This document shows positions 26,141 through 56,689 of a stretch of DNA of 64,000 bases, piece by piece; position 1 is the stretch's first letter, and each line of letters starts with the position of its first letter. Where the stretch lies: NCBI GenBank assembly GCA_000165345.1, contig CM000430.1, forward strand, positions 480,001 through 544,000, written 5' to 3'. The position numbers and the translations under genes were made by a program. Under the pieces are notes generated by a model, which did not search any database, was not told where the DNA came from, and saw only the letters and a program-made list of their open reading frames with translations.

Positions 26141-26526
26141 TGCAGATATTTGGAAAACTAATTTCCCATAGGGATGGAGATAATGCTATACATGATCTAC
26201 TAGTTTCTCCATGTGATGGCGTTTTGCAATATGTTTGGCCAAATGTTTCAACACCTACTGTTGCTTTCATGCTAATTGCAAGGATTCAATGTAATTTGAA
26301 AATACAAGGATAGTGAGGCAGATTGAAATATCTTAATACTAAATAAATTATAATAGTTTGATAATTATCAAACACGCTTTTTCTAAATTGTTCATATTAC
26401 AAGAAAATGACGTCATCATATTTGATTATTAGATCAAAAGGCGGCTTGAATGCACGCAAAATCCCCACTGAGCGTTTTGATGTTTTCTAAATCAAATTTG
26501 TAGAAATTGAGAGAATTTATGTAAAT

Positions 26527-27555
26527 ATGCAGATTAATTACCTAATTTTTTCTGTATTTTCTGCGTTACTTCTTGGGTTAAATAGTCCAGTATACGCAAT
26601 AACTACTGAGTCAAATGAATATGTTGCTAACACCAAAAGCAAATCTAGAAATAGACTTAGAAGATTTTTGGATAGTTTAAATAAAGTGGAACTCAAGCTT
26701 CCCAAGATAACCAGAAAAAATGTGATTAGTGAATATACTGTTGAGGATTTAGTCTCAAAGTTGCGAGAAATAGAGAAAACAAGAAGTAACACAAAAAATC
26801 CATTCAAGAAAATAAGATGTCTCATTCAAGAGTCAAATATTAAGAAAAAAATCAGTTCATTACTTAAAGAAAAGAGTGAAGAAGAAAAGTTCGAAAAGTT
26901 TGAAGAAGAATTTCCAATGGATTATTCTCCAAAGGCATTATCTGAAGAGGGGTCTATATCGCCCTATATCCCAGTAGTTGTTGAAGACTACAAGGACGTA
27001 GAAGTTGCGTCAGGAGCATCTATTAGAAATGAGGGAATTCAAGACGAGATTAAATATCTGACATCGGAGGATACTGATCAATCGACTAGTGGAGAGTTGG
27101 ATGATTTGGCACATCCAATTACATCAGAAACTGGCAATGAAAATGAAGGCACTGAAGATTCCGTTACGGAAGACTTTGAAAAAAAGGAAGTTGTAGAAGA
27201 CAATTTGGAAGACTATCAAGCCAAAGATGTGGATGGTGAAAGCCAGTCAAACGAGAATGGGCAGCAAACAGATTCAGATCTGCAAGAAAACGCAGATAGA
27301 GGAGAAAAAGACAACATTCAAAGCAAGGCAAGATTAGCGAACATTTTTAAAAGAAAAAAGTTAACTGCTTCCGAAAAGCTTGAAAGATTAATGTCACTTA
27401 AAAAAGATATTGAAAGCAGGATTTCTAGTTCTAAGAGTAAACTCCTTAGAAGAGTTTTGGAAATGAAACTTAAAAGAGTGAATCACAAGATTTCTAAAAT
27501 AACAGATGCGGCTGTAGATACAGTTACTGAATCAGGCGAGATTGACATCGAATAG
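26527..27555 (+). CDS. secreted acidic low-complexity protein (signal peptide; contains an SKSR tetrapeptide)
   Basis: 342 aa. Signal peptide MQINYLIFSVFSALLLGLNSPVYA. Mature part is Glu/Asp/Ser/Lys-rich and includes ...NTKSKSRNRLRR.... Reminiscent of Cryptosporidium SKSR-type secretory proteins, but the family assignment is uncertain. Confidence 0.6.
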   Translation: MQINYLIFSVFSALLLGLNSPVYAITTESNEYVANTKSKSRNRLRRFLDSLNKVELKLPKITRKNVISEYTVEDLVSKLREIEKTRSNTKNPFKKIRCLIQESNIKKKISSLLKEKSEEEKFEKFEEEFPMDYSPKALSEEGSISPYIPVVVEDYKDVEVASGASIRNEGIQDEIKYLTSEDTDQSTSGELDDLAHPITSETGNENEGTEDSVTEDFEKKEVVEDNLEDYQAKDVDGESQSNENGQQTDSDLQENADRGEKDNIQSKARLANIFKRKKLTASEKLERLMSLKKDIESRISSSKSKLLRRVLEMKLKRVNHKISKITDAAVDTVTESGEIDIE

Positions 27556-27908
27556 GTCCTATCATACATATACACCGCTATTAACTAAAACTGCACGAGG
27601 AAAGTATACTTTATTACATAAATCAACAGTTATAAAAAAAATAAAATCGATTTAGATCTGATTTGAAAATAACTGCCGACAAGTTAAAAACAGGCTTTTA
27701 AGACCTAAAGGATTTAAGACTAAATGAGACATTTAAATGGCAAGATATTTAGGTAATATGATAGAGAAATACACTGCATTTATTCTGTTCTATAGTAAGA
27801 TTCTGGTATTATTAGATTTAAATCTTGCACCACGTCTTGTCTAAGAGATACCTCTATTTTTTTTTTGTACACAAAATATTAAGAGAATTATTTCTTGATT
27901 TATTCACA

Positions 27909-28412
27909 ATGTTTAAACTATTTAGTTGTTTGTGCTGTCAAAATGTTGACTTGAATGAAGAAAGGTAAGTCATATTTGACAGTTTAGATGAATTTATATC
28001 TTTTTTTACAGAATGGACACAAGATTATTCACAAGGTTTCCTTCAACGTATCATCTTAGGACTCTTTTTGACGAATATGTAAGTTTTCCTATTCAACATT
28101 ATATAAAGTAAGTCTAATTATTGGTAGAGCTTAAATGGATCAGATATTTCTGAAGGAAGCGAAGTTGGAGATAATCATGAGTGTCAAAATGAAGATCGTC
28201 TAGAAATGATTGTTGAAGAAGATAATGAATTTTTAGAAGATGGACTTTATGATAGAAATTCTCTAAATGCGAGTAGGAAGGTCACTGAAAAAAGTGAAGT
28301 TGATGTAATGAACATAAACAGCAATAGAAGTTCATTGAACACAAACTCTGGATCTAATACGAATCGATCAAAGCAATCGAAGAGGAATAAAAGGAGGAGC
28401 TACAGGAAGTGA
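27909..28412 (+). CDS. small protein with N-terminal Cys cluster (MFKLFSCLCC) and basic C-terminal tail, 3 exons
   Basis: Exons 27909..27964, 28012..28078, 28128..28412. Introns 27965..28011 (47 nt, GTAAGT..TTTACAG) and 28079..28127 (49 nt, GTAAGT..TTGGTAG). The unspliced frame hits TAA immediately after exon 1. The splice joins the frame to track ORF 28206..28412. C-terminus SKQSKRNKRRSYRK. Confidence 0.5.
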
Positions 28413-40248: not shown

Positions 40249-43200
40249 ATGAAGTTTAAATGCAAAAAAGATTACTTAAGTATAATATTTTTATGGATTT
40301 GTTTTTTTAGTAGAAATGAAATATTTGTCAGAAGTAATAATTATTACCTTGGGGAAAACTACGATAGCCCATTCACAAAAGATGAGCCGAATCCACTAAT
40401 AAATCATTTAAATTATGTTCCATTTTATGGAATGACAGGAATAAGCCCAGGTTACGAAAATCCAGCAATGATCCCAATGGATCCTAATCAATTTAACCAG
40501 CCAGTAACAAGTTTAGGAAAACAACTTGCAAGTGAGCTTAAAAGTATTCAATTAGGAAACGGGCATTTAGTTCCAGATATAAATGTTAATTTAGAATCTA
40601 GAGCAAGTTTAGGGCAAGATATTTTAAAGGTTAAAAAAATTAATCCAAAAAAAAAGATAAAATCAAAATCGAAATCTGAAACATCTGAAAGGAAACCCTT
40701 AATTAATTCTTCCTCATTAATTTCATATAGAGAATATTTCCTGCCAGTTCCGGAAGAAGTTGGGAAAGGAGTTAAATTGAATGAAAGTTGCCTATTTTCT
40801 CCGACTCCAATGAAAATCTCCAAAAAAGATTCCTATTGGAGGAAAACAGACGACTCAAAAGCGGTTAATCGTTTTGAAGTTAGTAGCCCAGTTTTCACTG
40901 ACGAGAATCCATTCAGAACATCATCTGAATGTTTAAATTTATTTGATGAGGCTTTTAATGCTTATAGAAAAAAAGAATTATTAATTTCACCGGAGAGGTT
41001 TGTGAGTTTGACAAGACAAGTTGCAATGCAGCTACGAGATTCTCTACTAAACTTCAAATATGTGGTATCCACAGAAGATTCATGTTTAGCAATGAGAATG
41101 ATGCTTTTTTTGCCGCATCAACTGAGAAATACCCTGAATTGCAAGTCTGCAATTATAGCTTCATTAAGGGATCCAGAGGAAATAACTAATTTCGAATTGC
41201 TAGACCAGCTTGATGAAAATACAGAGTCCAAATTCAAAGATATTTCATTTGTTTGTAAAAATACATTTAAATTCAACGAACCAAATAGCAGTTTAATTAG
41301 TACACAAATTTTTAAGCCTAGTGAAATGGCAAAATTTTTCAGACTAGATTTAACTGTAAAGAACCTACAGTTTTTTCATAGACTTTCAATTCCGCATAGA
41401 AAAGCAGCTCTCAAGGTTCAAGAAAGTTATCAAAAACATACGAAAGATATTCTGCTTTATGATATTGCGGCATCGATCATTTTTCTTTTAAATGAGTTGC
41501 ATGCGACTGACCAGTCAATAGAGCAATGTAGCGTTATTGTATTTGCATGTGTTTCCATGCAAAATGGTGAGACTTCCAACTTAAATCAAATGACTGCAGA
41601 GCAAATATGCAAGGAACTTGGAATAGAATTGATTTTGAAAAAACATAATGTCAAGTATAGTAGTTTGATTTTTTTTCAACTATTGAAAAAACAAACTCAC
41701 GATAAGTCAATTTTCGGACGGGTGTCAACCTCATCATATACTCTTCCTTCTGGAAAAATATTTTTACCATATTCTAAGTATGGATATCCAAAAATTAGTT
41801 CAAACTTAGAAATTTGGGCATCCGTAGGCAAGGTATTTTCGGATGGGACAGTCAGTAGTTTTATTATTCCAGCATGTACAGGCCTCCCTGCATCTGAGTT
41901 TAATAGATTTATATTCTTGAATACCATGATTGAAAGATACTTAACTATTTCTGGGCTTGGCCAATTTAAGTTAACTGTGGAAGACATCTGTATGATTGCG
42001 AAATATTATCTTGCATACAAAAAACATCTTAGGAATGAGATGGGAAATCAAATTTCAACTGAAGACACAATCCCATTAGCCATTTTTAAAGTTGCTCAAA
42101 GATTAAACTTAGATATATTTACTATTTCAGCATGCAGAGAGATATATAGAGAGTTTTCTGAAGAAGAAGAAGCAATGTTGAAGAAGACAGTAGGAAATAG
42201 AAAGGAAGATAAATTAGAAAGTATCTATTCAAAACCACCTTTCAGTTATAATTCAAACATTATTTTAAGGCATCAACCAAAAATTAATGAAAAACAATAT
42301 GCCAATACTTGGTGTTTATTCCAAAAAGACGATGCTTGCTCACATTTGAAGCACTTTGTTTTGAACAGAATGGTACTTTTTGTAGCATATGTTCTTGAAT
42401 TTTGGAGGAAGAGCAGAACTTCCGAAAAAATGCCATTTAAAAGTATTACTGAGATTTGTATTGGTTTCTCTGGTGATTATTTAAATTTTAGACCTAAAGC
42501 TAGCGATTTCAAACTGTTCACAGAAGATTGGTTATTTCAAAAAGATGAACAAACTCTTTATTCGAACACTCTAGATTTACTTTGGAATAACTTTTTGATT
42601 TTTGAAAATTCTGCGTTCCCAAAAAATTCTGAAGAAACTGAATCAGATTATTTACAAAGGATCTATAATAATGCACTTGTTCCCGAGCCATTGTTTGTTC
42701 ATGACTGGAAAAATATTGAGCTTCCTATTAGAATGGATATTGCTGAGTTCACAAAACTTTTGCCACATGTACAAAAATCGGTAGAAATATTCTCTACTCT
42801 TGATGATATAACACTTAATCATGTAACATTAGTCAGAGCATTTTTGGAATCTTTTTTTGAAGAAACTTACCAATTTCCTGTAATAATTTCTGAGAAAGAT
42901 ATACTTTTATTACTTGAACGCCGTGAACTTGAGAAGAAGCCTTTGGATGAGTTATTTTTCGAAATTATGTCGTCCAAAAGTGACTGGTCATGGATTAAGC
43001 ATGAAACTTCATCCCATGCAATCTTAAGGCTTCTCGAATACTTAAAAACAGTAAAGAAGAGTGTGGAGGAGAGTATTAAAAGAACTCCAACAAAGAGTGA
43101 TATTTATTCTGCGCCTAGGGCAGTGCTTGCTCACGGAAAATGGTTAATAAAAGCACCTTATCCTGTATTTTATCCATCAACCCCTTTACAAAAGAGGGCT

Positions 43201-46200
43201 TTACATGGCCTCCCCAAATTCCTAATAAATAAGGCCCGTTATATTCAGGCATATTTTATTAATGCTTTTGACAGAGTTCTTCAATTTGATCTTTCACTCC
43301 GCCTTGCAGATATTGTTTATTCACTCACAAACTGCGCAGGAGATGACAAAAAATTAGTAGAATTGCTTAGAGAACGAATTTCTATTCAAAATGGTCAGGA
43401 CTTCGTTAATGACAATGTAGTAAGCGAGATTTATAATTCTTGCATGTCCTTCAGTTTTTATAAGTATCTCCTAAAAGGTGCATTATCAGAAGAACAAGCA
43501 TTTGCAGCGCCGAGAGTGTTTTACAAACCTAAATTTGGGTGGAGATTCTTTCCTCCAAATGTACCAGACTTTTCAAGGCTTTTGGTGTTGAGTAAAGCTT
43601 TCAAAGTTGAAAGTGGAAATAATGAATTTGATCGAGATCCACATAAATTATTAGATGAAACAAATTCTAATGAAATAGTTGTTAGACCATATACATGGAA
43701 AACTTTAAAAGGGATTTATGAACAGAAAAAACTGGAAATTTGGCAACTTAATAGGGCAATATCTATGTGCGCATATTTTAATCATTGGATTTCATATAAA
43801 TTCTCAACAAAGAATTCGAGAGATCTTCAAGTATCAAATTGTATAAATGCAATATATCGTTTGAAAAGCATAAATAAGAGTCAATCACAATCAGAAATAT
43901 CGCAAGTTTTTTTAAGGTACTTAGGAGTACCTTTTATTAAGGAAAATGATTTTAATGAGATGCTTTCAGCATTCACTTCATTCGAATGCGTGGGTAAACC
44001 GAACAGTATGAGCACTAGACAATGGCTAATGAACTTATATAGGATTCCTCAAATTCAAGAAAATAATAAAAATTCTCTTTCAGAAGAATTTGAATCACTA
44101 AGATTTCACATACCACCTGTCTTTGGTGAGCAAAAAACTATTTTTGAGCATGGACAGCCCCAGATCACCAGTATTAATGCGGATATTCCGGAAATATATA
44201 TTCCAATGGATCTAGATTCTGATTCGCTTAATAATTTGAGGGAGTTATTTGAAAAGTTTACTTATCGTTATTTAAGTAGGGTTGGGATAATGGTTGAAAC
44301 TGAACTTGAAGCTCTAAACTTTTCAATGGTAGATGTGTTTAAGATTGCAAGAGATAGAAAATTATCATTTTCTGAGGCACTACAGCAACATGTTTCTGAT
44401 ATTGGGGGTAATATTCAAAAGAATGTTTTTAAGAAACTCTCAGCAGCATTCTTTAGATTTATTCTTTTAAAGTTTGCAAGTAGCAACGAAGAACCATTTG
44501 TACAGATACTGAGACGAATTTCCATAAGTAGAGTAATTACTGATGTAGGAAAGCTCCCATTTGATATTCCCTTGGGTATAGTTTCGGGGAAACTCGATCT
44601 AGATCTTCCATACAATTCCCACTCTTTTGGAGAAGTAAATTTTGCAAGATTGGTAGTTGCATATATGAATGAATATTTGATAGAACTTTTTGATCTTAGA
44701 AATAAAATTTTATCCGATGGAACCGTCGAAAAAAATGTTCTTAAAGAATTTCCAGGGTTTGTTAAAGAGAATTGTGTTGCAAAAAGTATGGATGTCATTA
44801 GAAAAGGGGGGATTGATCTTCAGAATGCATTAGATCAGTCTTGTTCATCCGAATTATCTTGGATGAGTATGAAAGTTCTGAGAATGTTGGTATCTGGGCT
44901 AATGACGTACTGTAAACTTAATTTTAGAGGATTTCCAATTGAGAAAAATGGAAGAAGCATTTTAGATTTTTCCAGGGAAAATTTAAATTCCCCTATAGTA
45001 TTGTTTGACAAATACTTCAAAACTTGGACAATGCAAAATGCAAGGAAAAATACAAGAGAAGGCGAAGATTTTGGGTCTAAATTTTCTACATTGGAATCCA
45101 TAGGGATTGTGGATCAAATGACAGGAACAATTATTTCCTCAAATTTCAATTTCTGTAGTGAAATGAATACATCCCAGATAAATAGACTACTGATTAAGCT
45201 TCAATATTACAAACATTGTATTTCTGAGAATGCAATTTCAAATATTGAAGTTGATCGACTATTGGATTTGAATATTTGGTGTCTTGCTTTACGACAAAAA
45301 GTACCAGATATGAAAAAAACATATTCGAATATGTTGTTCACTTATTTTGGAATTCGCGGAGCAGTTAAAGAGAGTTTCGAGATTCTTGAGGACTCATTTG
45401 AATTTGTAGAAGAATCTTTGTTAGGAAAAAACTCTTTGGTATCTATTAGGCAGTGGGCCCAAGATTTTTATTCGTCACATTCTAAACCATTTTCTCAATT
45501 TAACTCACTTGTAAAATCTGATAAGTTATTTTGTCCAAGAGTAATTACTGAAGATGAATTGCACCAATTTCAAATTGTTCAGAAAGATAACATATTTAAT
45601 CGTGTAGAAGCATTTCAAGGATTTTCAGAGATTTTCTTAAGAGAGAAATATGGAATAATTTTTGAATCAAGACCAATAATTGCAGCGCTTTTAGTAGATG
45701 GATTCTCCATTATTAAACCATCCAACTCTAATATAGCATTAATAAGGTCTATGATACCTATTGCGTCTGAAGAAATTGTAAATTCATTAATTGGAGCATT
45801 TAATTCTTTCGAAGCAAATTTATTAAAAGGTGGTTTGACTTCTCTACAAGATTTGTATAAAAATCCAATTTGTGAACGTTCTCAAGGAAATTGGCATTTT
45901 CATGTTGAATTGGAAACAATAAACAGGGCTGATGTGCTAATAAATTCAAAGTTAATCTTTTCCGAATTAGAAATTAACAGATTTCAAAATATTGTAGCTT
46001 TTTTGAATACTGCTTTGAATTTTAAGTATTCAGAAAAAATGTTGGGATCTTATATTTCGTTTAAACATATTGCTACATTATTTAAGGCAGAAATAGACCT
46101 TTCTTCTTTTGCACATATTATTAATTATTTCCATAGAACTTTGCAGGATGATTTAAGTTTTTCACCTTGGCTTACCGTGAAGGCACTAAAAGGTATTTTC

Positions 46201-47208
46201 CAGTCCTTCATTTCTTGGGAAAGGATTGAAATCTTCAAAGTCTCGCCAACGCACTCAAAAAATTTTGGATTAGTGGTTTCTAGTGCTGATATGGCTAAGT
46301 ACAACAATTCTCCAGTGGGATTGATCAATGGAAAATGGCATTGGTATACTTGGTGTAAAAGGCCAGACTTTAATTTAATACATCGTGAAGTTTTAGGAGA
46401 CGAAGTTGTACATGTTTTGACACCCCAAGAAAGAAGTTTATATGGGATTCCCAGAATTAAACATAAATTTGAGATTGCTACTTTATTTATTCAATATTTT
46501 CTACAAGATGTATTGAATATTCTTATACCATTTAAACCGGATGTTACAATGAAGATATTTAAGGGGGAAACAAACTTATCACCTGATTCAGTTGAGTTTT
46601 TAAGAAAAATATGGGAACATTATAAAAACTCTTTTATTTATAAAGGTTCCTTACCTAAGCACGATTTATTCCACAACCCAATAATCAATGTTGTAAATAA
46701 ACAAAGATTCTTCCCAGCTGCTGCAATTCCTCGATTTGATAATTTTGATACAACTCTTATTCCACCTTCCCTAATAGAAATAGAAAATCTCTATCCTGGA
46801 ATTGTTCTTGGTTCAAAGTTTGAAATAAACAGACTGATTACTATTTGCGCATTCATAAATCTAAGCTTTGAAATTTTTATTGATGATTCAACAGAAAAAG
46901 ATGATATTATTACGCCAATAGGTTTATATGATATATTAAAGGACAAGATGAATATTTTAATTATTGAAAAACAAGACGAAATTACAGGTTTGTTTAGGCA
47001 ATGGCAATTTTATTCAGGTAGTCAAGAAAAAGCATCGCATTTAAAGATTACATTACTTAATTATAATAATTTTGAAAAGTCTATGTTGGACAGAGGATGG
47101 GATTTTTCGAAATTATATCGAAAACCTATAGTTTTTTCAGTCCAAAATGGTTATAAGATGAACTTTAATTTGAAAAGTTATATACCTAAAGTTAAGAACA
47201 GAATGTAA
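40249..47208 (+). CDS. giant orphan protein (2319 aa) with N-terminal hydrophobic signal/anchor
   Basis: Uninterrupted 7.0-kb ORF. N-terminus MKFKCKKDYLSIIFLWICFFSRNEIF. No recognisable catalytic motif; helical-rich. Confidence 0.8.
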   Translation: MKFKCKKDYLSIIFLWICFFSRNEIFVRSNNYYLGENYDSPFTKDEPNPLINHLNYVPFYGMTGISPGYENPAMIPMDPNQFNQPVTSLGKQLASELKSIQLGNGHLVPDINVNLESRASLGQDILKVKKINPKKKIKSKSKSETSERKPLINSSSLISYREYFLPVPEEVGKGVKLNESCLFSPTPMKISKKDSYWRKTDDSKAVNRFEVSSPVFTDENPFRTSSECLNLFDEAFNAYRKKELLISPERFVSLTRQVAMQLRDSLLNFKYVVSTEDSCLAMRMMLFLPHQLRNTLNCKSAIIASLRDPEEITNFELLDQLDENTESKFKDISFVCKNTFKFNEPNSSLISTQIFKPSEMAKFFRLDLTVKNLQFFHRLSIPHRKAALKVQESYQKHTKDILLYDIAASIIFLLNELHATDQSIEQCSVIVFACVSMQNGETSNLNQMTAEQICKELGIELILKKHNVKYSSLIFFQLLKKQTHDKSIFGRVSTSSYTLPSGKIFLPYSKYGYPKISSNLEIWASVGKVFSDGTVSSFIIPACTGLPASEFNRFIFLNTMIERYLTISGLGQFKLTVEDICMIAKYYLAYKKHLRNEMGNQISTEDTIPLAIFKVAQRLNLDIFTISACREIYREFSEEEEAMLKKTVGNRKEDKLESIYSKPPFSYNSNIILRHQPKINEKQYANTWCLFQKDDACSHLKHFVLNRMVLFVAYVLEFWRKSRTSEKMPFKSITEICIGFSGDYLNFRPKASDFKLFTEDWLFQKDEQTLYSNTLDLLWNNFLIFENSAFPKNSEETESDYLQRIYNNALVPEPLFVHDWKNIELPIRMDIAEFTKLLPHVQKSVEIFSTLDDITLNHVTLVRAFLESFFEETYQFPVIISEKDILLLLERRELEKKPLDELFFEIMSSKSDWSWIKHETSSHAILRLLEYLKTVKKSVEESIKRTPTKSDIYSAPRAVLAHGKWLIKAPYPVFYPSTPLQKRALHGLPKFLINKARYIQAYFINAFDRVLQFDLSLRLADIVYSLTNCAGDDKKLVELLRERISIQNGQDFVNDNVVSEIYNSCMSFSFYKYLLKGALSEEQAFAAPRVFYKPKFGWRFFPPNVPDFSRLLVLSKAFKVESGNNEFDRDPHKLLDETNSNEIVVRPYTWKTLKGIYEQKKLEIWQLNRAISMCAYFNHWISYKFSTKNSRDLQVSNCINAIYRLKSINKSQSQSEISQVFLRYLGVPFIKENDFNEMLSAFTSFECVGKPNSMSTRQWLMNLYRIPQIQENNKNSLSEEFESLRFHIPPVFGEQKTIFEHGQPQITSINADIPEIYIPMDLDSDSLNNLRELFEKFTYRYLSRVGIMVETELEALNFSMVDVFKIARDRKLSFSEALQQHVSDIGGNIQKNVFKKLSAAFFRFILLKFASSNEEPFVQILRRISISRVITDVGKLPFDIPLGIVSGKLDLDLPYNSHSFGEVNFARLVVAYMNEYLIELFDLRNKILSDGTVEKNVLKEFPGFVKENCVAKSMDVIRKGGIDLQNALDQSCSSELSWMSMKVLRMLVSGLMTYCKLNFRGFPIEKNGRSILDFSRENLNSPIVLFDKYFKTWTMQNARKNTREGEDFGSKFSTLESIGIVDQMTGTIISSNFNFCSEMNTSQINRLLIKLQYYKHCISENAISNIEVDRLLDLNIWCLALRQKVPDMKKTYSNMLFTYFGIRGAVKESFEILEDSFEFVEESLLGKNSLVSIRQWAQDFYSSHSKPFSQFNSLVKSDKLFCPRVITEDELHQFQIVQKDNIFNRVEAFQGFSEIFLREKYGIIFESRPIIAALLVDGFSIIKPSNSNIALIRSMIPIASEEIVNSLIGAFNSFEANLLKGGLTSLQDLYKNPICERSQGNWHFHVELETINRADVLINSKLIFSELEINRFQNIVAFLNTALNFKYSEKMLGSYISFKHIATLFKAEIDLSSFAHIINYFHRTLQDDLSFSPWLTVKALKGIFQSFISWERIEIFKVSPTHSKNFGLVVSSADMAKYNNSPVGLINGKWHWYTWCKRPDFNLIHREVLGDEVVHVLTPQERSLYGIPRIKHKFEIATLFIQYFLQDVLNILIPFKPDVTMKIFKGETNLSPDSVEFLRKIWEHYKNSFIYKGSLPKHDLFHNPIINVVNKQRFFPAAAIPRFDNFDTTLIPPSLIEIENLYPGIVLGSKFEINRLITICAFINLSFEIFIDDSTEKDDIITPIGLYDILKDKMNILIIEKQDEITGLFRQWQFYSGSQEKASHLKITLLNYNNFEKSMLDRGWDFSKLYRKPIVFSVQNGYKMNFNLKSYIPKVKNRM

Positions 47209-47434: not shown

Positions 47435-48618
47435 TTATTCCACATTAATGCCTGATAATTTTTCCAATTTGTTTCTCAATGAAATTTGATTTGATTTTTT
47501 GATATTTTTTTCCCATTCCTCCCAATTTTTATTTTTTGGGGTGTTTGATTCATCTAAAATTGCAGAATTATTATCCATATAATTAAAATCCGTGGGGGCA
47601 TTCAAAAAAGATTCATTTGTAAACTGAATCATCTAATTTGATTAATAATATGTAAATTAAAAAATACTTTGTGATTAAACTTACCGAAACATTTATATCA
47701 GTATGATTCGTAGTAAGTCCTAAATATTGTTCTCTAGTACTAAAAATTTTTCTAGTTGCATTGACCAAATTTTCTGGATTTCTAGGGATTTCCCAAAGCC
47801 CATAATGTTGGAGATTTATCAAATTTTGTCTCATTCTGGCATAATTCCTTCTTTTTAGAGATAACAAAGGATATTTATCCATAATTGCTAGATAAATCTA
47901 ATGCAATAGTTAAATTAAAAATTATAAATAAATTTACACTTACATCATACGAAAACTTTGCTTCACTAGAATTGGACGTTTTGTTCATATTAATTTCAAA
48001 ATCAACAATTTCAGAACTTTCTGATTCAGTAGTTATTTCAGATGATTCATTAAATTTTCCAAATACCCCAGTTTCATTTTTTATTTTAACAAGTTCATCT
48101 TCACTTAATTCAAATTGGGTACAGCATTTGCAATTCTTTTTAGAATGATTTTTTTTGAATCTTGGAAACGTAAGGCACAAATCATTTGGGGAAAGATTTG
48201 GACAAGAAATAAAAGCACTTGAGTGTAGTTCAAAGCAGGAGGAATTGCAATTTTTTGGGCAAGAATGATTACATAAATTAGAATATGTGCAGGAACTTCC
48301 TTTACACCCTGAACAGGGGCTCAAGTTGTTCGAATAATTACAATTCGGCATGTCCAAATGCTTTCTTTTACTGTAACTTGATTGTTTTGTTGCACAATAA
48401 CATTTTTTTGAACAGCAAGCAATTTTACAGGTTTTTTCTTGATCATATGGTCCAACTGTGATTTTATTTCTATATGGGTTTACAAACCTTCGATGGACTC
48501 CAACCTGCATAAAACAAGAGATATGTTGATTTTCTCTTAAATTTACATAGGGAAAACTCTGAAAGATGTCAATATAAAAGAGAATTATACTTATAAAATT
48601 TTTTATTTTATGTATCAT
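47435..48618 (-). CDS. cysteine-rich protein, 3 exons (merges three separate track ORFs)
   Basis: Exons are 48618..47944 (Cys-rich: ...CKIACCSKKCYCATK...CSGCKGSSCTYSNLCNHSCPKNCNSSCF...KNCKCC...), 47897..47685, and 47632..47435. The two introns are 47943..47898 (46 nt, GAT|GTAAGT..CATTAG) and 47684..47633 (52 nt, TCG|GTAAGT..AATTAG). Both are phase 0. They join track ORFs 47875..48618, 47613..47882 and 47435..47632 in one frame. Exon 1 begins with a signal-like hydrophobic segment MIHKIKNFISIILFYIDIF. Confidence 0.6.
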
Positions 48619-48823
48619 TTTTTATTTTCTTCAAATATTAAATCTAAATGCATGAACAATAGGCGCCTCTTTAAACAAAATCTTTAATATTGTAAATACA
48701 ATATTACTTAGTGTCAATCTGGTACATTAATACAAATAACAGTATAGAAAAATGAATTATATATTTATAATTATGCTATCTATAGGTTGAGACTAATACG
48801 GTCATTTGTTTGATAAATACCTT

Positions 48824-51800
48824 TTAAATGATTATTATAGTCGAGTTTTGAGAATAATTTCCTTGGTTAAACCCATCGTGAACTATGCTAGATCCTTCAA
48901 TATCAACATTATACTCCTTTGATCTAAGACTTATTGTGCCAAGAACGCCTTCTTGCCTAAGGGTTAGTTGGGTAACAACATCATAATTGGAATAATTTTT
49001 TAAGGGGAACTGACGCTTCCCTACAGTAACTCTATCTGGATAAATGGTAATTATTTCATTAGAAATAATATCAAATACTTGGTTATTATAGTAGAATTTA
49101 CCATTATTAACTTTGTATATAATACCATTAATGTTAACTTCTTGTATTGATCCTGGATTGTGAGATAACTTTACTACAACTTCTGTGAGAGAGGACTGAT
49201 AAGTTGTAATTAATCCGTATTCTCCAATAGAATTACAGCTACAAACTATTTTTCCCTGTTTGAATTTAGTTTCACAGCCATTTTGATACCAAGAACCATC
49301 TTTTCCCTTATATGTGCATTGGTAGCTTAAACGCTTACCCAAAACAACACTAGGAGTGTATTCTGGGCTAACAATAAAACTGATTTTGTTCTCAATCCCG
49401 TAAAGACGATATTCATAGCCGCATTTAGATATAAATACGTCATACACTTTTTGAAATACTCCATTAAAGCTTTTATCTTGCTGAATTTTATTGGCTAATT
49501 CAAAAAGATAATTATACAATGGAGGTTTAATAATAGTAAGGCCATATCTAGGATCATGGCAGTTAACGAATAAATTTCTTCCCCAAAATTCTTGGTAGTC
49601 AACATTCTCATGATGTAACTTAAAGTATATGTTCTTTATCAACGAAATATCAATATTTTCAAGTTTTTCATTACTAAGGTCAAGAGTAGGAATAACTAGT
49701 TCATTTCCAATAGCTGCACCGCTATGTAAATCTAAATTAGAAAATATTGAACTTTGAATTGATAATTTTGTCATTTTCCCCTTAATTTCTATCTGGCTAC
49801 CAAAGTCATTATTCATTGCCCATTGGTTAACTGAAAATGCTCCGAACAAATTAGTATCAGCTTCAATATTATTAAGTAGTCTTAATTCAACCAAGAAATC
49901 TAAAATATCTACAATAAGATTTTTAAAACCTTCAAAATATCCACATTCAGCCTTTAGTGCAATTCTAAATAACCTTTCAGGGTCAAACGAATGATCTGGT
50001 AATGTTTTATCAAAATTCATATAGCTAAATTCAAATAATCTCCAAAAAATGTATAGAATCATTGCTGAATTTCCTCCTGTTGTATCTTTATTATTAGGAT
50101 CTATTTCAATTAGTTTCTCTTGAAATTTTTTAATCTGATCTATCGTTAGGAAATCTAATTTCGCGGATAAGATCGATGCAATCATAAGTCTATCATTTAA
50201 AGTGCCAATTTTTTGATAGTTCAAAAAATATTCTAATAAATTAGAGTACTCTTCTTTAAGTTCATCTTCTTTCAGAAAAGCTTGCCCTACTTCCAAGATT
50301 TTCTTTGACTTTTGAAAAACGAAATAATTGCATTTTGAACTTGAGTTTTTTACGCAAAACATATTTCTTAAGTGTTTGTCAATCGCATCATTACTGAATT
50401 CTGAACAGTCTATCCCACAAAGTAACTCATTATCTTGGTTATGAATAATTAGATGTATTTTCCAAGATTCATAATTTGTGGGTAATCTTAAATATTGTGG
50501 AATATTTGATGTTAAAAAGGATAGTAGTAGCGCATTACTTTTGAATTTGTTATTTTGCTCATTATCTAAGCCATTTTCACTAACTGTTGCCAGTATTGAA
50601 TATTTCCAATTACTCATCCCAGCCAAGTTTGAAATCTTAAAGTTAATGGGAATTATTTCTCTAGGTCCTTTATTCTCAGTTGTCCCTTTAATTTTTATTA
50701 ACGAAAAATCGTGTTCAAAGAATAGATCCTCCCATACGTATGACACATAATCTCCAGAAGAAGCTAGATTATGAATATTGCTTCTTTTTACAATAATGTT
50801 CAATTTATTTTGATTTATTATTTCGTTAGAATTTTGCTTTATAACTAAAAGTATAACAGAAAGCCTGCCATCTCTTGGGTTGACATCGGTTTCAGTAATA
50901 TTTAATTTAATTGAAACAGCTATTAGATCATTTTGAATTGCTTGATCTTTTAAATTGTAAACACTGGGAGTAGTTTTTAATTGAACATATCCTGTGTTTT
51001 CAAAATAAGCGAAGGAAAGGAATTTAAGTCCTTGTACATTATCCCATTCATTCCCTCCAATGAATTTTATCTTTGCCAAGAGCAAACTCTCAGAGGCTTT
51101 AGAAATTATACTTGGAATCTTGTGCGGAATAATTTGTAGTGGTAATTCTTTATTAACCATAGAAAGATAGAAGTGCTTACACTCTATTGCATCTATAATT
51201 TTACTCTTTATTCCCACTGCAATGACCATATGGGTTAAACTTTCTTGTGGTATTAGACTAAGCTCAGTGTGGGTGGCATTACCTGAAAGTGTCGCATTTG
51301 ACTGTTGAAATGAACATGCTTGACCCCAATAGGATCCATCTGTTCTACATGCTGCTAATAGCCCTGTTGTAAGATCCTCAATTTGATTTTCATCTGAAGT
51401 TGCAGAGCAGTAGTATCGGATTTCTTGATCTTGAAATTGGAAATCAGCCTGATAACTTCTTGAAGCTCTACAAGAGGAACAACCCGTTTTGATAGAATCA
51501 CAATATCCACTCTGAGAAACAATCTGGTCGATAGTTTTAGAAGTACCAGTTTCAATTGTTATTTTTGGATGATTTTTTGAAACTATCGATGAAAAATAAG
51601 CATTAATACTTGGTTGGATTGTTTCGTTATGAAAAATTACCTTATCTTTCGAAGAAGCAAATGAGTTTTTAGTGGATACTTTGGTAACATTTATCATTGA
51701 TATTGGTTGTTCTAAGATATTTATGTCTAAGTTTTTTCTTGAAGTAGATTTTATGCAATCAAATGACCCACCTTTAATATATTCTTCATTCGTAATTGAA

Positions 51801-54800
51801 ATCCTACAGCTACCAATTGATGACAGTAATTCTGGGTTGAAGAAACTATCTTTACTAATTCCAAGGCCTTCGCTCATTTCGAATTCAATGCTTTTTAAAT
51901 AATTACTTGAGAAATAGTTATTCAAAAATGGAGGACAGTTTTCTAAAGAATTATATGGTATAGAATATGGAATAACGTGCTCAATAATAGATGATACTGG
52001 AACTTTTGATTTAGTTAATGCTCCAGGAAAATTGATTAGTTTGCTGGGAATATATGTTGTAGATAACTCCCCCATTTCAGAGGCTTGTTCCTTTGTGCTA
52101 GTTTCTATTGATGTAATAATATCAAAAGTAGAATATCCAAATAAATCAGGCAAATTGTTTCCTAGCCCTAATCTACTTAATTCGAGAGTTACGTTCAATA
52201 AAACTGTTACTCCAGCTACTCCATTTATTTGAGGAAGTTCATCTTGTTGATTTAGCGGTCTCCAAAATGATTGTTTTGTTGGAAGAACTGTTCTTTGAAT
52301 AATATTCGGCTTTACATAATATGTTAAATTTATGTTTTGTCCTAGTCTTGAAAAAGAGTAATCCATATATTGAAGTTCATTTTCAAATTTCGTACAAAAT
52401 TCTAAGCTTGAGTATGCAGAGTTTGGAATTATACATTTGAAATTCAGAGATAAGCTTTCATCTGGAACAAAATCAGGAATGTTTTTTAGCTGAATAATAA
52501 TTGGAAGGAAGTCATTACAATAGGTGGATAATTTAGGATTTGAAATTAACATATATGGTTGAAGTATATTGGGCCTAGATTTAGAAAATAATGGCTTAAG
52601 GTCTTTATCTGATAAAGTTGGGATATATGGAATTGGCTTTCCTTTTAAGCCGTAATATGTAATTGCAGAACAACCACACTTGAACTCAATTGTTTGGTTT
52701 GTGAAATGTTTAACCCTCTCTGTAGTGCATAGTTCATCTGAAAGTTCGGATTGATCTTGTTTCATTGCTGTACATTTTACTTCTGAATAATCCAGTTCTT
52801 CTTTATATTCTGCAAAGAAAGAAAGTTCAACATTATTTTCTAAATTCCAAATTTCATATTCCAAAGTGCATAATACGAAAGAAGTAAATGCCAGAGGAAA
52901 TTCTTCAATGTTTTCTAGGCTTTTTGTCACCAAGTAGTTACTAAGGTATCCGCCTGTTCTTATCACAGTTATTGTGTTAAAACTTTTCGCACAAAAATTA
53001 AAACCTTCAATTGCCAAGTTATTTTCATATAGTTTTTTGTTAACTCTGTAGTAAACTCCGTTATGGAATAGTATATCTTCGGGTTTGATACTTTTCATGT
53101 CAATTTTTGGGAAAGATATCCCACCTACTTTGACGCCTTTGTTCATATCGACTTGATTAAAGGTACTACTAAATACAATATTACCAGTCTTTTCAGTAAT
53201 TATGGAGTAGGTATCTTGAACTCCATGAGTATAGCTCTTTCTAGAAGCTACACCTTGGTAAATACTTAACAAAATTTTCAAATTTTCAGGGGATAACTCT
53301 GGAAGTGGGTTTGTAGCACCAATTAGATCTGTAGAATTTAAAACAAGGTTATCAAGTCCGTTAACTAAAAAGCACTCAACCAAAGTGTATATCCTTTGTA
53401 TTGAATTGAATGGTAGTGAAGTTTTAATATCAAGCCTTTCTCTATAGTAATGCTTGCTCAAGATTCTGTTTATTACAGCTAATGTTGTTGGTTGTGCAAA
53501 CGGATAGTCTTGGTTGAAAGATATATTATGTGAATCTATTGCAGTTTCATATATTAGCTGAAAATATTTTCCCCATACAAGTTCAAAAGTGGCTGGAAGA
53601 GAAAAAATGGCATTAACAAGGCTCATTGTATCGACATAAGAAAGATAAGAAATTGGATTTGTAACAACAGCTATTGCATCTTCTATTTGCGATTCAGAAA
53701 TGTCTGGTGATGTGGTCACAACTGTGTAGTTGCAAAGATTATAATCAAAAGGGTTATTTTCGACGAATTTGGGTAAACACCATTCGGCATAAGGACTTCT
53801 ACTCATATCTCCTTCACATTCCACAAAACAGCCCTGATCCCACTTATCCGCAGTTCTAGTAAATACGTACCATTTTGAATGGGTAGGGGGCAACCTAAGA
53901 CCAAATCTATTATGCTGGCCAGACAATACCATTTCAAAAATCTGGCTATCTGGGCTAAATACAGGTTTATTCAAAGCGATAGCAGAAAATAAAAATGGTG
54001 TTATTGTGAAGTTGTAATGATGGGTTACATTCACAGGGGTGTATAACGCATCAGATATTGATGTTTTACCAGGATGTGGTTCCAGAATATTCGAACTCTT
54101 AGCTAGAAATCCATTATTTACAAAGATCCATTGCGCATATTCATGCATACCTTCATCTGACCTATATACTCTGGGGTTTAGTTTCTCATATTCGTTCAAA
54201 CTTACAGCTTTTAATAGTTCAATGTTATTCTTCTCTACAATATCATTCACAAATATGAATGCCCTTAATACACAGTAAGTTGGACTTCCATAAAACTTAG
54301 ATAATACAAATGGAGGAATTTTCACAGATCCCCCAACTTTTCCACCAGAAATAAGCACATCTCCAAGCAATACACTTTCTGGCATTACTATCAAATCAAT
54401 ATTCTCAATTTCAGGGCACATTAGCCAAGATCGCAGTTTTAGTTGGGAGTTTTCAGTCCAAGTGTTATCGGGATAAACATCCATATAAAACTGATAAGAA
54501 AAGTTTCTGCTCATAAAAATCCCTGGGAGGATTCCTCCTGCATATGGGTCTGTATATGGTGTGATTTGGGTTAGTTGAATGGGCTGATAAATATCGGTGA
54601 CGATTGTGTAATAGTGCTGGAAATAATAATAAGTATTCATTGGAGAGCAACATGTATCATTTGAAAGAGTATTGTATATGAACATAGTATTGGTGTGATA
54701 TTCTCCTGCTTTAAACGTAAACTCTGTTGTATTCAATCCAACAGGAATCCATCTATCTGGAACAGATTTTAAGCATGATTGGAACCCACTGGCAATTTGA

Positions 54801-56689
54801 GCAGGAATATCTTCTTCAAAATTACCATAATAAAATTTTAGTGCAATCATTCTTGAATTAGGGATTACTGTTAAATTTGAAGCACAGAATTCTGTAAAAT
54901 TCATTTGATCAATGATTTCTGTCTTCCAGGGAATCACCCTAGGGTTTGAGCAAATCCAACAACCATTTGGTTCCGAGCAATGGCCAAATCTATCTTGCAT
55001 ATATTGAAAATTAAAATTAAAGAAAGGGTCTCCTGCTTTTAGATCTCTGCCAGAGTATTGTACAAAAGGAACGTTAAGCCTTGGAGAAGGAGATGTTAGT
55101 TGTAATCCAGGGGTTGCCCCAAATATGTGAAATGATGGATATGCCCCCAAAAATTCAACATTTGAATTGAAATCAAAAATTGAAGATGAATCTGAAGAAC
55201 TTTGTACGCCGTATTGAAGTATTGACGTAATCATAGTTTGCATATTACTAACACCATATTGAAGAAATTCCAGTGGGGGAGGATAAAATGCAGTCTTATA
55301 TACATCTGAAATGCTTGCAGATTGAGTTGAACAGATTGTATTTGCGAATCCCGAGTTTGTTGAGCTCGGAACAAGTGGGAAGGTTCCATTAAAATAACAA
55401 CCGCCATAGTAGTTACCTGTTTCTATCCATTGCGAATTTGGAGATCCAACAGGAAAACCCTGCTCATACCAATTTGCGCCAAATGGGATCTTATTCCAGT
55501 AAGATTGGACAGCTACAGTATTTCTAAATATTTTTGATGAGTCTTTGTTAAACAAAGATTCAAGATTCCTAGGATAATTTTTGATGGAACCATCTGGTTC
55601 TTCATTGGTTGGATAGTAAAAGTCATAGTTACTTGTGCAAACGATTTCGGAGCCAGGTATTCTAGAAGGAGGCACTATTCTTACAAAGGGGCTCGTAATT
55701 GGGATATTTATATTGCCCCAGGCAACAAATCCAGCATGCTTACCTGGCTCTGTATATGTAGTATACAAAACGCCATTTGAAAACTTATCATTAGGAACTA
55801 ACATGGGGAAAAACCCTCCGAATCCAGCGGGGGGCGTCCAGAAAGATGACAATCCTGAGCTCTGCTTTGAAAATTCATAGCTTAGGGTGATATTTGCAGA
55901 GAATTCAATTACAGGAATGTCGGTTCCATGAGAATTTGTGCCAGGAACAACTTCAGAATAATCTACACTAATTTTAAATGGGAATGATGTTGCCTTAAAT
56001 AAATATGTAGAAATTCCAACTTTATCCATAACGTCTTCTCCAAATATTGTGGGATCAAACTGGTACTTAACATCCCTATCCATTATTTGGGGAATCTTAT
56101 CTGGAAGTTGTTCATTAAATTCTTTAACAATATTCACGAGTTTCGATCCTTCTAACCAAATTGTAATATTGTTTGCTCCATTAAATATTGTATACGTAGT
56201 TTCACTTTCCATCAGAGCTTGTGCAATATCAGTACAAGCCTTGACAACTTTTACTGTATCTACACCTAATTGGAACTTCTGTAAGCTTTTTTGTAATGAA
56301 ACTGAATCACAAATAATATTTTTAATTGGAGTCATGCCACTTTTTGGATAAGACCCAATAAACTGTATTGTTATTGGATGCATAAATTGGCATGGGCTTA
56401 CAAAATTGGTTACTTGACTATCTATAGAAAGAAAGTTACCTACTCCCGGCCCAATGAATAGAGATGCCAAATTAAATCCGATAGGGTAGTAGTAAACTCT
56501 GTCAGGCGGACCGTTCATATCTATGTTTGCATTGGCCATACCAAACATAAATATTTTAAAGCTTACGAATGAAAGCAGAAGTAAAATGAACTGCAAACAC
56601 TTTAGTCGTCTTATCTTCATCTTAAAAAACGAGGGCATCAAAAAGAATCCTATATTGTCCATATTACTGGAATTATTCTCCAAAATCAC
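48824..56689 (-). CDS. giant secreted Cys-containing orphan protein (2621 aa)
   Basis: Uninterrupted 7.9-kb ORF. Probable signal peptide at the internal Met (MKIRRLKCLQFILLLLSFVSFKIFMFGMANA; ATG at about 56620). More than 70 Cys residues and many N-glycosylation sequons. No recognised domain. Confidence 0.8.
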   Translation of the reverse strand: MILENNSSNMDNIGFFLMPSFFKMKIRRLKCLQFILLLLSFVSFKIFMFGMANANIDMNGPPDRVYYYPIGFNLASLFIGPGVGNFLSIDSQVTNFVSPCQFMHPITIQFIGSYPKSGMTPIKNIICDSVSLQKSLQKFQLGVDTVKVVKACTDIAQALMESETTYTIFNGANNITIWLEGSKLVNIVKEFNEQLPDKIPQIMDRDVKYQFDPTIFGEDVMDKVGISTYLFKATSFPFKISVDYSEVVPGTNSHGTDIPVIEFSANITLSYEFSKQSSGLSSFWTPPAGFGGFFPMLVPNDKFSNGVLYTTYTEPGKHAGFVAWGNINIPITSPFVRIVPPSRIPGSEIVCTSNYDFYYPTNEEPDGSIKNYPRNLESLFNKDSSKIFRNTVAVQSYWNKIPFGANWYEQGFPVGSPNSQWIETGNYYGGCYFNGTFPLVPSSTNSGFANTICSTQSASISDVYKTAFYPPPLEFLQYGVSNMQTMITSILQYGVQSSSDSSSIFDFNSNVEFLGAYPSFHIFGATPGLQLTSPSPRLNVPFVQYSGRDLKAGDPFFNFNFQYMQDRFGHCSEPNGCWICSNPRVIPWKTEIIDQMNFTEFCASNLTVIPNSRMIALKFYYGNFEEDIPAQIASGFQSCLKSVPDRWIPVGLNTTEFTFKAGEYHTNTMFIYNTLSNDTCCSPMNTYYYFQHYYTIVTDIYQPIQLTQITPYTDPYAGGILPGIFMSRNFSYQFYMDVYPDNTWTENSQLKLRSWLMCPEIENIDLIVMPESVLLGDVLISGGKVGGSVKIPPFVLSKFYGSPTYCVLRAFIFVNDIVEKNNIELLKAVSLNEYEKLNPRVYRSDEGMHEYAQWIFVNNGFLAKSSNILEPHPGKTSISDALYTPVNVTHHYNFTITPFLFSAIALNKPVFSPDSQIFEMVLSGQHNRFGLRLPPTHSKWYVFTRTADKWDQGCFVECEGDMSRSPYAEWCLPKFVENNPFDYNLCNYTVVTTSPDISESQIEDAIAVVTNPISYLSYVDTMSLVNAIFSLPATFELVWGKYFQLIYETAIDSHNISFNQDYPFAQPTTLAVINRILSKHYYRERLDIKTSLPFNSIQRIYTLVECFLVNGLDNLVLNSTDLIGATNPLPELSPENLKILLSIYQGVASRKSYTHGVQDTYSIITEKTGNIVFSSTFNQVDMNKGVKVGGISFPKIDMKSIKPEDILFHNGVYYRVNKKLYENNLAIEGFNFCAKSFNTITVIRTGGYLSNYLVTKSLENIEEFPLAFTSFVLCTLEYEIWNLENNVELSFFAEYKEELDYSEVKCTAMKQDQSELSDELCTTERVKHFTNQTIEFKCGCSAITYYGLKGKPIPYIPTLSDKDLKPLFSKSRPNILQPYMLISNPKLSTYCNDFLPIIIQLKNIPDFVPDESLSLNFKCIIPNSAYSSLEFCTKFENELQYMDYSFSRLGQNINLTYYVKPNIIQRTVLPTKQSFWRPLNQQDELPQINGVAGVTVLLNVTLELSRLGLGNNLPDLFGYSTFDIITSIETSTKEQASEMGELSTTYIPSKLINFPGALTKSKVPVSSIIEHVIPYSIPYNSLENCPPFLNNYFSSNYLKSIEFEMSEGLGISKDSFFNPELLSSIGSCRISITNEEYIKGGSFDCIKSTSRKNLDINILEQPISMINVTKVSTKNSFASSKDKVIFHNETIQPSINAYFSSIVSKNHPKITIETGTSKTIDQIVSQSGYCDSIKTGCSSCRASRSYQADFQFQDQEIRYYCSATSDENQIEDLTTGLLAACRTDGSYWGQACSFQQSNATLSGNATHTELSLIPQESLTHMVIAVGIKSKIIDAIECKHFYLSMVNKELPLQIIPHKIPSIISKASESLLLAKIKFIGGNEWDNVQGLKFLSFAYFENTGYVQLKTTPSVYNLKDQAIQNDLIAVSIKLNITETDVNPRDGRLSVILLVIKQNSNEIINQNKLNIIVKRSNIHNLASSGDYVSYVWEDLFFEHDFSLIKIKGTTENKGPREIIPINFKISNLAGMSNWKYSILATVSENGLDNEQNNKFKSNALLLSFLTSNIPQYLRLPTNYESWKIHLIIHNQDNELLCGIDCSEFSNDAIDKHLRNMFCVKNSSSKCNYFVFQKSKKILEVGQAFLKEDELKEEYSNLLEYFLNYQKIGTLNDRLMIASILSAKLDFLTIDQIKKFQEKLIEIDPNNKDTTGGNSAMILYIFWRLFEFSYMNFDKTLPDHSFDPERLFRIALKAECGYFEGFKNLIVDILDFLVELRLLNNIEADTNLFGAFSVNQWAMNNDFGSQIEIKGKMTKLSIQSSIFSNLDLHSGAAIGNELVIPTLDLSNEKLENIDISLIKNIYFKLHHENVDYQEFWGRNLFVNCHDPRYGLTIIKPPLYNYLFELANKIQQDKSFNGVFQKVYDVFISKCGYEYRLYGIENKISFIVSPEYTPSVVLGKRLSYQCTYKGKDGSWYQNGCETKFKQGKIVCSCNSIGEYGLITTYQSSLTEVVVKLSHNPGSIQEVNINGIIYKVNNGKFYYNNQVFDIISNEIITIYPDRVTVGKRQFPLKNYSNYDVVTQLTLRQEGVLGTISLRSKEYNVDIEGSSIVHDGFNQGNYSQNSTIIII

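Follow-up and report, generated by a model that had tools for sequence, protein, structure and literature searches.

Three overlapping open reading frames on Cryptosporidium parvum chromosome 2 very probably form one spliced gene, cgd2_2600, for a predicted secreted glycoprotein

The DNA analysed here is a window of 64,000 nucleotides (64 kb) from Cryptosporidium parvum chromosome 2 (assembly GCA_000165345.1, contig CM000430.1, positions 480,001 to 544,000), with a composition of ~30% GC and densely packed, long open reading frames (ORFs); no tRNA genes were found in the 64-kb window. Three ORFs of 247, 89 and 65 amino acids (aa) on its minus strand, between positions 47435 and 48618, make up the locus cgd2_2600. 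In the three-exon gene model, to which we assign a probability of about 0.97, two short phase-0 GT-AG spliceosomal introns are removed from a minus-strand pre-mRNA, and the spliced message encodes a protein of 361 aa. This protein is predicted, with a probability of 0.6-0.7, to be a secreted N-glycoprotein of the sporozoite stage.

In the ORF list, the three minus-strand frames are located at 47875..48618 (ORF 1, 247 aa), 47613..47882 (ORF 2, 89 aa) and 47435..47632 (ORF 3, 65 aa). A sequence-only reading of this DNA had proposed that these ORFs, which were all present at the sizes it gave, belong to one spliced gene, and this proposal was upheld by the identity of the spliced product to a deposited protein and by the conservation of the introns in eight species. 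The phase-0 introns of 46 and 52 nucleotides (nt), with GTAAGT donors and YAG acceptors, were likewise recovered, both acceptors being TAG. The description of the ORF ends had to be revised: adjacent ORFs do not abut but overlap by 8 and 20 nt, and the reading frame runs on past the donor not for one codon but for 22 codons in ORF 1 and 23 codons in ORF 2.

On the minus strand, exon 1 (47944..48618; 675 nt, aa 1-225) carries the start codon, the signal-like segment, the FVNPYRNK motif and the Cys/Ser-rich and acidic regions. It is followed by intron 1 (47898..47943; 46 nt, GTAAGT..TAG), which lies in phase 0 between D225 and I226, and by exon 2 (47685..47897; 213 nt, aa 226-296), the core of the conserved domain with the motifs MDKYP, RRNYxRMR, GLWEIPR and REQYLGLTxNHT. 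Intron 2 (47633..47684; 52 nt, GTAAGT..TAG), also in phase 0, separates S296 from M297, and exon 3 (47435..47632; 198 nt including the TAA stop, aa 297-361) completes the coding sequence. The GTAAGT donors begin at 47943 and 47684 and the TAG acceptors end at 47898 and 47633. All three exon lengths are multiples of 3, and the GC content of the introns was 15% as compared with 27-30% for the exons. Across the window, GTAAGT was counted 32 times, with 23 ± 5 occurrences expected and 2 of 100 shuffles reaching 32. Since the hexamer is not clearly enriched and the motif alone is weak evidence of splicing, the case for splicing rests on cross-species conservation.

For intron location, the orthologous loci of C. 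hominis, C. meleagridis, chipmunk genotype I, C. ubiquitum, C. canis, C. felis and C. bovis were fetched. In these seven species and in C. parvum (8/8), both introns interrupt the coding sequence between the same two codons (phase 0), and GT[A/G]AGT..YAG boundaries are kept at both. In the species order given above, intron 1 measures 46, 46, 47, 46, 48, 43 and 82 nt and intron 2 measures 52, 50, 57, 52, 50, 52 and 46 nt, so that the lengths range over 43-82 and 46-57 nt and are mostly not multiples of 3. The peptides flanking the introns are conserved (..SYD/IYL..MDKYP and ..YLGLT.NHT.../.., the slash marking the intron). Because frame-breaking length changes stand directly beside conserved flanking peptides, the introns are read as non-coding sequence between coding exons. 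In C. canis, C. felis and C. bovis, the first residue of exon 3 is A or I and no ATG lies nearby, and exon 2 of C. felis is devoid of an early Met, so that these exons cannot be independent genes.

Exon 2 has a constant length of 71 codons in seven species, with 73 codons counted in C. bovis, and a codon-level alignment of six species contained no gap column in this exon. Pairwise dN/dS values of 0.10-0.70 were obtained, below 1 in every region tested and with all three exons spanned, and the substitution pattern fits purifying selection in each of these regions. The lowest values were those of exon 2, with 0.10 against C. hominis and 0.18 against C. ubiquitum. For the C. parvum and C. hominis orthologues, which are 92% identical, dN/dS was 0.28 according to a published table (PMC4637869) or 0.31 as computed here; this divergence exceeds that of the neighbouring genes (94.5% and 98% identity), yet purifying selection is indicated. 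Further support comes from the annotations themselves: the introns of the CPATCC annotation are 100% RNA-seq-supported according to the paper describing it (PMC8744675), and in the 2015 re-annotation models were altered only given expression support (PMC4637869).

Several further observations concern the introns. Intron 1 of C. canis (L002 9727..9774; 48 nt) contains no in-frame stop, and its retention would leave the frame intact, which holds for none of the other seven species. For intron 2, a candidate alternative acceptor (CAG), also in frame, is situated 9 nt further downstream than the one given above (47624..47632, minus strand); its use would lengthen the intron to 61 nt and remove M297-I298-Q299. 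C. parvum, C. hominis, C. meleagridis and C. ubiquitum all share this candidate site. The idea that retention of intron 1 yields a functional membrane or glycosylphosphatidylinositol signal by way of the hydrophobic tail (VSVNLFIIFNLTIALDL...) was rejected, as the tail is unconserved in length and sequence between species.

The 247-aa ORF was 100% identical to the C. parvum Iowa II hypothetical protein EAK88743.1 / XP_626462.1, and the spliced 361-aa product agreed at every residue with the deposited C. parvum protein P0009 (QOY42971.1 / WRK31050.1), whose records bear the locus tags cpbgf_2002600 and CPATCC_0028190. In a supplementary table of Isaza et al. 2015 (PMC4637869), cgd2_2590, cgd2_2600 and cgd2_2610 are paired with their C. 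hominis counterparts, and from this pairing together with the gene order the three-ORF locus is cgd2_2600, a single-copy C. parvum gene (CPATCC_0028190 / cpbgf_2002600). The 2319-aa ORF on the plus strand (40249..47208) was assigned to cgd2_2590 and the 2621-aa ORF on the minus strand (48824..56689) to cgd2_2610. Database entries for C. hominis, C. tyzzeri, C. ubiquitum and C. canis include full-length orthologues of 359-416 aa. The three-exon model has been public since the C. hominis UdeA01 annotation of 2015 and is also contained in the C. parvum IOWA-ATCC and BGF annotations; the present finding corrects only the obsolete 2004 Iowa II model, the gene model itself being already known. A full-text literature search returned no mention of cgd2_2600, its neighbours or the newer locus tags, and no entry for cgd2_2600 was found in the supplements of PMC6617391 and PMC6536522.

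Faulty models of the gene were encountered in several public records. EAK88743.1 (247 aa) is the unspliced first ORF of the original Iowa II annotation, and XP_667235.1 (249 aa) and ELE39_001761 (246 aa) are unspliced GenBank models of the same locus; for chipmunk genotype I, the spliced product reconstructed here measures 364 aa. The models KAL5370055.1, KAL3129518.1 and POM85337.1 begin at M37 and have lost the signal-like segment, and OLQ16167.1 (567 aa) is a fusion of the cgd2_2610 C-terminus with cgd2_2600. GenBank still contains truncated or fused models for C. parvum Iowa II, C. hominis TU502, chipmunk genotype I and C. meleagridis. Beyond such annotation hygiene, the significance of the finding is small.

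For conservation comparisons along the protein, ten orthologues were aligned. The signal-peptide-like N-terminus (aa 1-23, MIHKIKNFISIILFYIDIFQSFP; 48550..48618, minus strand) was delimited by Kyte-Doolittle windows and conservation: all top-scoring 15-residue windows fall within aa 2-25, the protein contains no other hydrophobic segment, and an equivalent segment is present in 10/10 orthologues. It is followed by the conserved motif FVNPYRNK..V..Y..EK (aa 45-62), which was seen in the orthologue alignment, and by a variable, basic Cys/Ser/Lys/Asn-rich region (aa 63-166; 48121..48432, minus strand) with 17% Cys, 17% Ser and a net charge of +12, in which dN exceeds that of every other region. 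Next comes a stretch that is acidic and Ser/Thr/Glu-rich (aa 167-222, FNESSEITTESESSEI..NKTSNSSE; 47953..48120, minus strand) and contains the conserved sequons N190, N212 and N216.

The block of aa 223-361, which derives mostly from exons 2 and 3, is the most constrained part of the protein, as had been suspected from its conserved look. The peptide RRNYARMRQNLINLQHYGLWEIPRNPENL noted there earlier, the CC..C.C cluster of exon 1 and the Trp/Glu-rich tail (NWEEWEK) are all present; the second Cys pattern had been read off by one and is C.GC....C.....C...C...C...C, with four residues after GC and not three. Across the ten orthologues, 18 columns are invariant, namely the initiator Met and 17 columns between C166 and W336, among them D232-K233, R241/N243/R246, L259/I262, F277, R280-E281, Y283, G285-L286-T287 and W333/W336; 12 of the 18 fall in exon 2. 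Conserved motifs of exons 2 and 3 are DKYP, RxNYxR, REQYLGLT and the invariant WxxW. The latter, W333-E-E-W336 (47513..47524, minus strand), stands at the start of a predicted C-terminal helix, and both Trp residues are retained in 10/10 orthologues.

The start codon at 48618 is supported by the conservation of M1 and the hydrophobic N-terminus in all ten orthologues and by the finding that this N-terminus is encoded in frame in the DNA upstream of the truncated C. meleagridis model. A promoter-like block, recognised by cross-species conservation, is situated 22-49 nt upstream of the ATG (48640..48667, minus strand) and consists of GGCGCC (48667..48662) followed by TGTTCATGCATTTAGATTT (48658..48640). 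It shows hardly any change in C. hominis, C. meleagridis, chipmunk genotype I and C. ubiquitum, and its GCGCC core is also found upstream of the gene in C. canis (-44) and C. felis (-35). The block appears to resemble the E2F-type and AP2-type motifs listed in PMC7840661.

When 1.84 billion representative proteins were searched exhaustively with HMMER and the orthologue profile, 11 proteins were returned at E ≤ 0.001. All named matches were from Cryptosporidium, the most distant being those of C. felis, C. ryanae and C. bovis, and the remaining ones were unnamed assembly ORF fragments closely resembling named orthologues. No paralogue, nothing from gastric species and nothing from outside Cryptosporidium was found in this search, by which the family is confined to Cryptosporidium with one copy per species. 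The 89-aa ORF fragment was the sole match of the C-terminal profile in a word-indexed search.

Regarding the fate of the protein, its N-terminal hydrophobic segment with no further membrane segment agrees with a signal sequence by a criterion that is heuristic only. The sequence contains 15 N-x-S/T sequons, with 6.5 expected from composition and 0/2000 shuffles reaching 15; N212 is conserved in 9/10 orthologues and N271 and N289 in 8/10, whilst for C. felis and C. bovis the excess falls short of significance. In the proposed mechanism, the signal-like segment would direct the protein into the endoplasmic reticulum and the secretory pathway, probably with cleavage, its many N-x-S/T sites would become glycosylated there, and the cysteines would form disulfides instead of metal sites. 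The protein would then act outside the parasite cytosol at the sporozoite stage, be it in a secretory organelle, at the surface or within the oocyst, most probably as secretory cargo or as a protein that is extracellular or associated with the surface. The helix-prone C-terminal module of exons 2 and 3 may provide a conserved interaction surface that binds a partner, with the Cys/Ser-rich middle serving as a fast-evolving spacer.

The sporozoite stage was suggested by published expression data. In the study of Tandel et al. 2019 (PMC6877471), triplicate samples of excysted sporozoites and of cultures at 24 h and 48 h were profiled, and the values listed for cgd2_2600 in the supplement are 7.93/7.75/7.91, 2.92/2.69/2.90 and 3.58/4.00/3.61. 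If the columns follow the order sporozoite, 24 h and 48 h, as taken from the study design and the code listing and not from a header, the mRNA level of sporozoites is read as ~30-fold that of 24 h cultures. The sheet 'SporoVSinvivo-Sporo' of the same source, which we take as a list of sporozoite genes that in vivo females do not share, includes cgd2_2600 as well. In a further dataset, the long non-coding RNA (lncRNA) Cp_lnc_89 correlates with CPATCC_0028190 at r = 0.85, and its five listed expression means, taken as running from oocyst to 48 h with no header seen, drop from 9.8 to 6.8 (PMC7840661).

A number of points weigh against the model of a spliced gene for a secreted sporozoite glycoprotein. 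The RNA-seq support for the introns is that stated in PMC8744675, and the stage order in the expression table of PMC6877471 is inferred as described above. AlphaFold2 gave no confident model, neither for the full-length protein with a 7-sequence alignment (predicted local distance difference test, pLDDT, 29.9) nor for the C-terminal module with an 8-sequence alignment (pLDDT 49.0; predicted template modelling score 0.19), where only helical propensity was visible; a Foldseek search of the low-confidence C-terminal model against the Protein Data Bank (PDB) gave 0 matches. A helical binding module is, hence, only weakly suggested. An Asp (D17) lies within the hydrophobic segment, which could be a signal anchor that is not cleaved. 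Finally, no localisation, proteomic or glycosylation data on cgd2_2600 were found in the literature and supplements searched.

The signal anchor is the most serious of the alternatives, albeit an unlikely one. The protein would then be a type II membrane protein, whose uncleaved hydrophobic segment tethers a glycosylated ectodomain to a parasite membrane. Lysines K4 and K6 ahead of the segment, the charged residue within it and the lack of a textbook small-x-small cleavage site in the C. parvum group would all be in line with this arrangement. However, the hydrophobic core of ~15-17 residues is short for a membrane span, and in C. bovis and C. ryanae the N-termini are classic signal peptides ending in CQG, which favours a cleaved signal peptide and a secreted protein.

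On the side of the secreted protein, a bolder extension, which we put forward as a long shot, is that the block of exons 2 and 3 may be an undescribed domain of the intestinal Cryptosporidium clade, through which a secreted, sporozoite-specific protein binds a partner of the host or of the parasite in excystation or invasion, and that the W-x-x-W motif may be C-mannosylated outside a thrombospondin repeat.

It was also considered whether the product, instead of serving invasion, is made for the oocyst, as a structural protein of its wall or as a sporozoite tether. This would suit a protein that is Cys-rich, signal-bearing and predicted to be glycosylated, and the mRNA peak was in material from excysted oocysts. 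However, oocyst-wall genes are expressed in female gametes (PMC6877471), whereas cgd2_2600 appears in the 'SporoVSinvivo-Sporo' sheet, and the 11 proteins of the exhaustive profile search, one per species, brought no other family to the surface. We regard a role in the oocyst wall as improbable.

According to the sequence-only reading, the product is a metal-binding or Zn-ribbon-type protein; as a rival to secretion, this would be a cytosolic or nuclear protein in which the Cys array of exon 1 coordinates zinc. Exon 1 indeed encodes 19 Cys in C. parvum with CxxC-like and Cx3C spacings, and the UniRef name 'TNFR-Cys domain-containing protein' of one C. hominis copy shows that automated tools react to this pattern. 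However, the array is poorly maintained between species: only one of the 19 Cys columns, C166, is invariant in the ten orthologues, C68 and C102 are kept in 9/10, and the columns other than C166 are conserved in 2-9/10. The total number of Cys per orthologue ranges from 11 (C. ryanae) to 23 (C. felis), C. hominis already has other residues at C73 and C116, and the array of C. ubiquitum is shorter by a 34-residue piece. A Pfam search with all 10 orthologues at E ≤ 1 revealed no zinc-ribbon, zinc-finger, metallothionein or TNFR family, and for the product and the 10 orthologues only sub-threshold noise was obtained (Erv26 at E = 0.02 on the hydrophobic N-terminus, and single-member matches). No PDB sequence match was accepted either; the best one with the full-length and C-terminal profiles, a homing endonuclease at E = 0.039, was rejected as chance.

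In addition, the conserved signal-like N-terminus and the two-fold sequon excess indicate the secretory pathway, where Cys usually form disulfides, which speaks for disulfides rather than metal sites. Owing to the unconserved Cys positions, the conserved secretory N-terminus and the sequon excess, a disulfide-bonded, glycosylated cargo is favoured and zinc coordination is very unlikely; this part of the earlier interpretation is, therefore, not supported.

That the locus comprises three separate small genes, or an unspliced transcript of which only the 247-aa ORF is translated as in EAK88743.1, could be argued from the ATG carried by every C. parvum ORF and from the 246-249-aa unspliced models in GenBank (C. 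parvum Iowa II, C. hominis TU502 and chipmunk genotype I), but is barely credible given the missing start codons of exons 2 and 3 in the species named above, the GT..AG boundaries retained in 8/8 species, read-through tails behind the donors that are unconserved in length and sequence, and the fact that exons 2 and 3, the most conserved coding sequence of the locus, join the frame of exon 1 only via splicing, with intron 1 of C. canis as the exception.

Concerning the surroundings of the gene, C. ubiquitum, C. felis and C. bovis share the order giant gene, cgd2_2600, giant gene, and both flanking genes are at least partly visible in C. hominis, C. meleagridis and chipmunk genotype I; the C. 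canis contig stops just past the cgd2_2600 orthologue, so that only the upstream giant gene can be seen. The flanking giant proteins of 2319 aa (40249..47208, plus strand) and 2621 aa (48824..56689, minus strand) have hydrophobic N-termini. No significant Pfam domain was found in them, the best match being a GPS motif at E = 0.021. A word-indexed search with the C-terminal 999 aa of cgd2_2590 (44209..47205, plus strand), aimed at the gastric species C. muris and C. andersoni, gave no match, although orthologues clearly exist in the fetched loci; saturation of the candidate list (8000 word candidates) is suspected, not absence. In the part of the co-expression cluster table consulted (PMC6877471), neither flanking gene stands beside cgd2_2600.

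The lncRNAs Cp_lnc_89 and Cp_lnc_90 are listed in PMC7840661 against cgd2_2590 / CPATCC_0028180 and are read as antisense to cgd2_2590; for Cp_lnc_89, a correlation of -0.81 with CPATCC_0028180 is given there. The 3' ends of cgd2_2600 and cgd2_2590 are only 227 nt apart. Since cgd2_2600 and the RNA antisense to cgd2_2590 are both encoded on the minus strand, and given this short distance, Cp_lnc_89 could be a 3' read-through of the cgd2_2600 transcript. Elsewhere in the window, plus-strand GTAAGT sites cluster at 25502, 25896, 26087, 27965, 28079 and 28108 (25502..28113) around a 342-aa ORF (26527..27555), which may mark another multi-exon gene.

The protein encoded by cgd2_2600 counts among the numerous uncharacterised proteins that are restricted to the genus, bear a signal and have sporozoite-enriched mRNA, and as such the gene is a reasonable, if unremarkable, candidate for epitope-tagging screens of Cryptosporidium invasion or secretory-organelle proteins.

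In comparison with known systems, each of the readings as a zinc-ribbon, TNFR or oocyst wall protein breaks down at a defining test, and the protein belongs to no defined family. With Zn-ribbon and metallothionein-like arrays, cgd2_2600 shares locally dense CxxC, Cx3C and CC motifs, but its would-be ligand positions are unconserved, no profile matches and the N-terminus is secretory. With the TNFR / NGFR cysteine-rich domain, it has in common a Cys-rich stretch that is extracellular, in the case of cgd2_2600 by prediction; however, the Cys columns that define the module are unconserved and the absence of a TNFR match at E ≤ 1 in the 10 orthologues includes C. hominis. The Cryptosporidium oocyst wall proteins (COWPs) are likewise Cys-rich and signal-bearing and occur in the same genus. 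COWPs have regularly spaced Cys repeats, whereas the Cys spacing of cgd2_2600 is unconserved; none of them was among the 11 profile-search matches, and the cgd2_2600 mRNA is highest in sporozoites. The C. hominis orthologue CUV04618.1 (CHUDEA2_2600) is 92-93% identical to the C. parvum product, and the neighbouring giant genes are likewise cgd2_2590 and cgd2_2610. P0009 (QOY42971.1 / WRK31050.1) and the product built here are, without any difference, the same gene.

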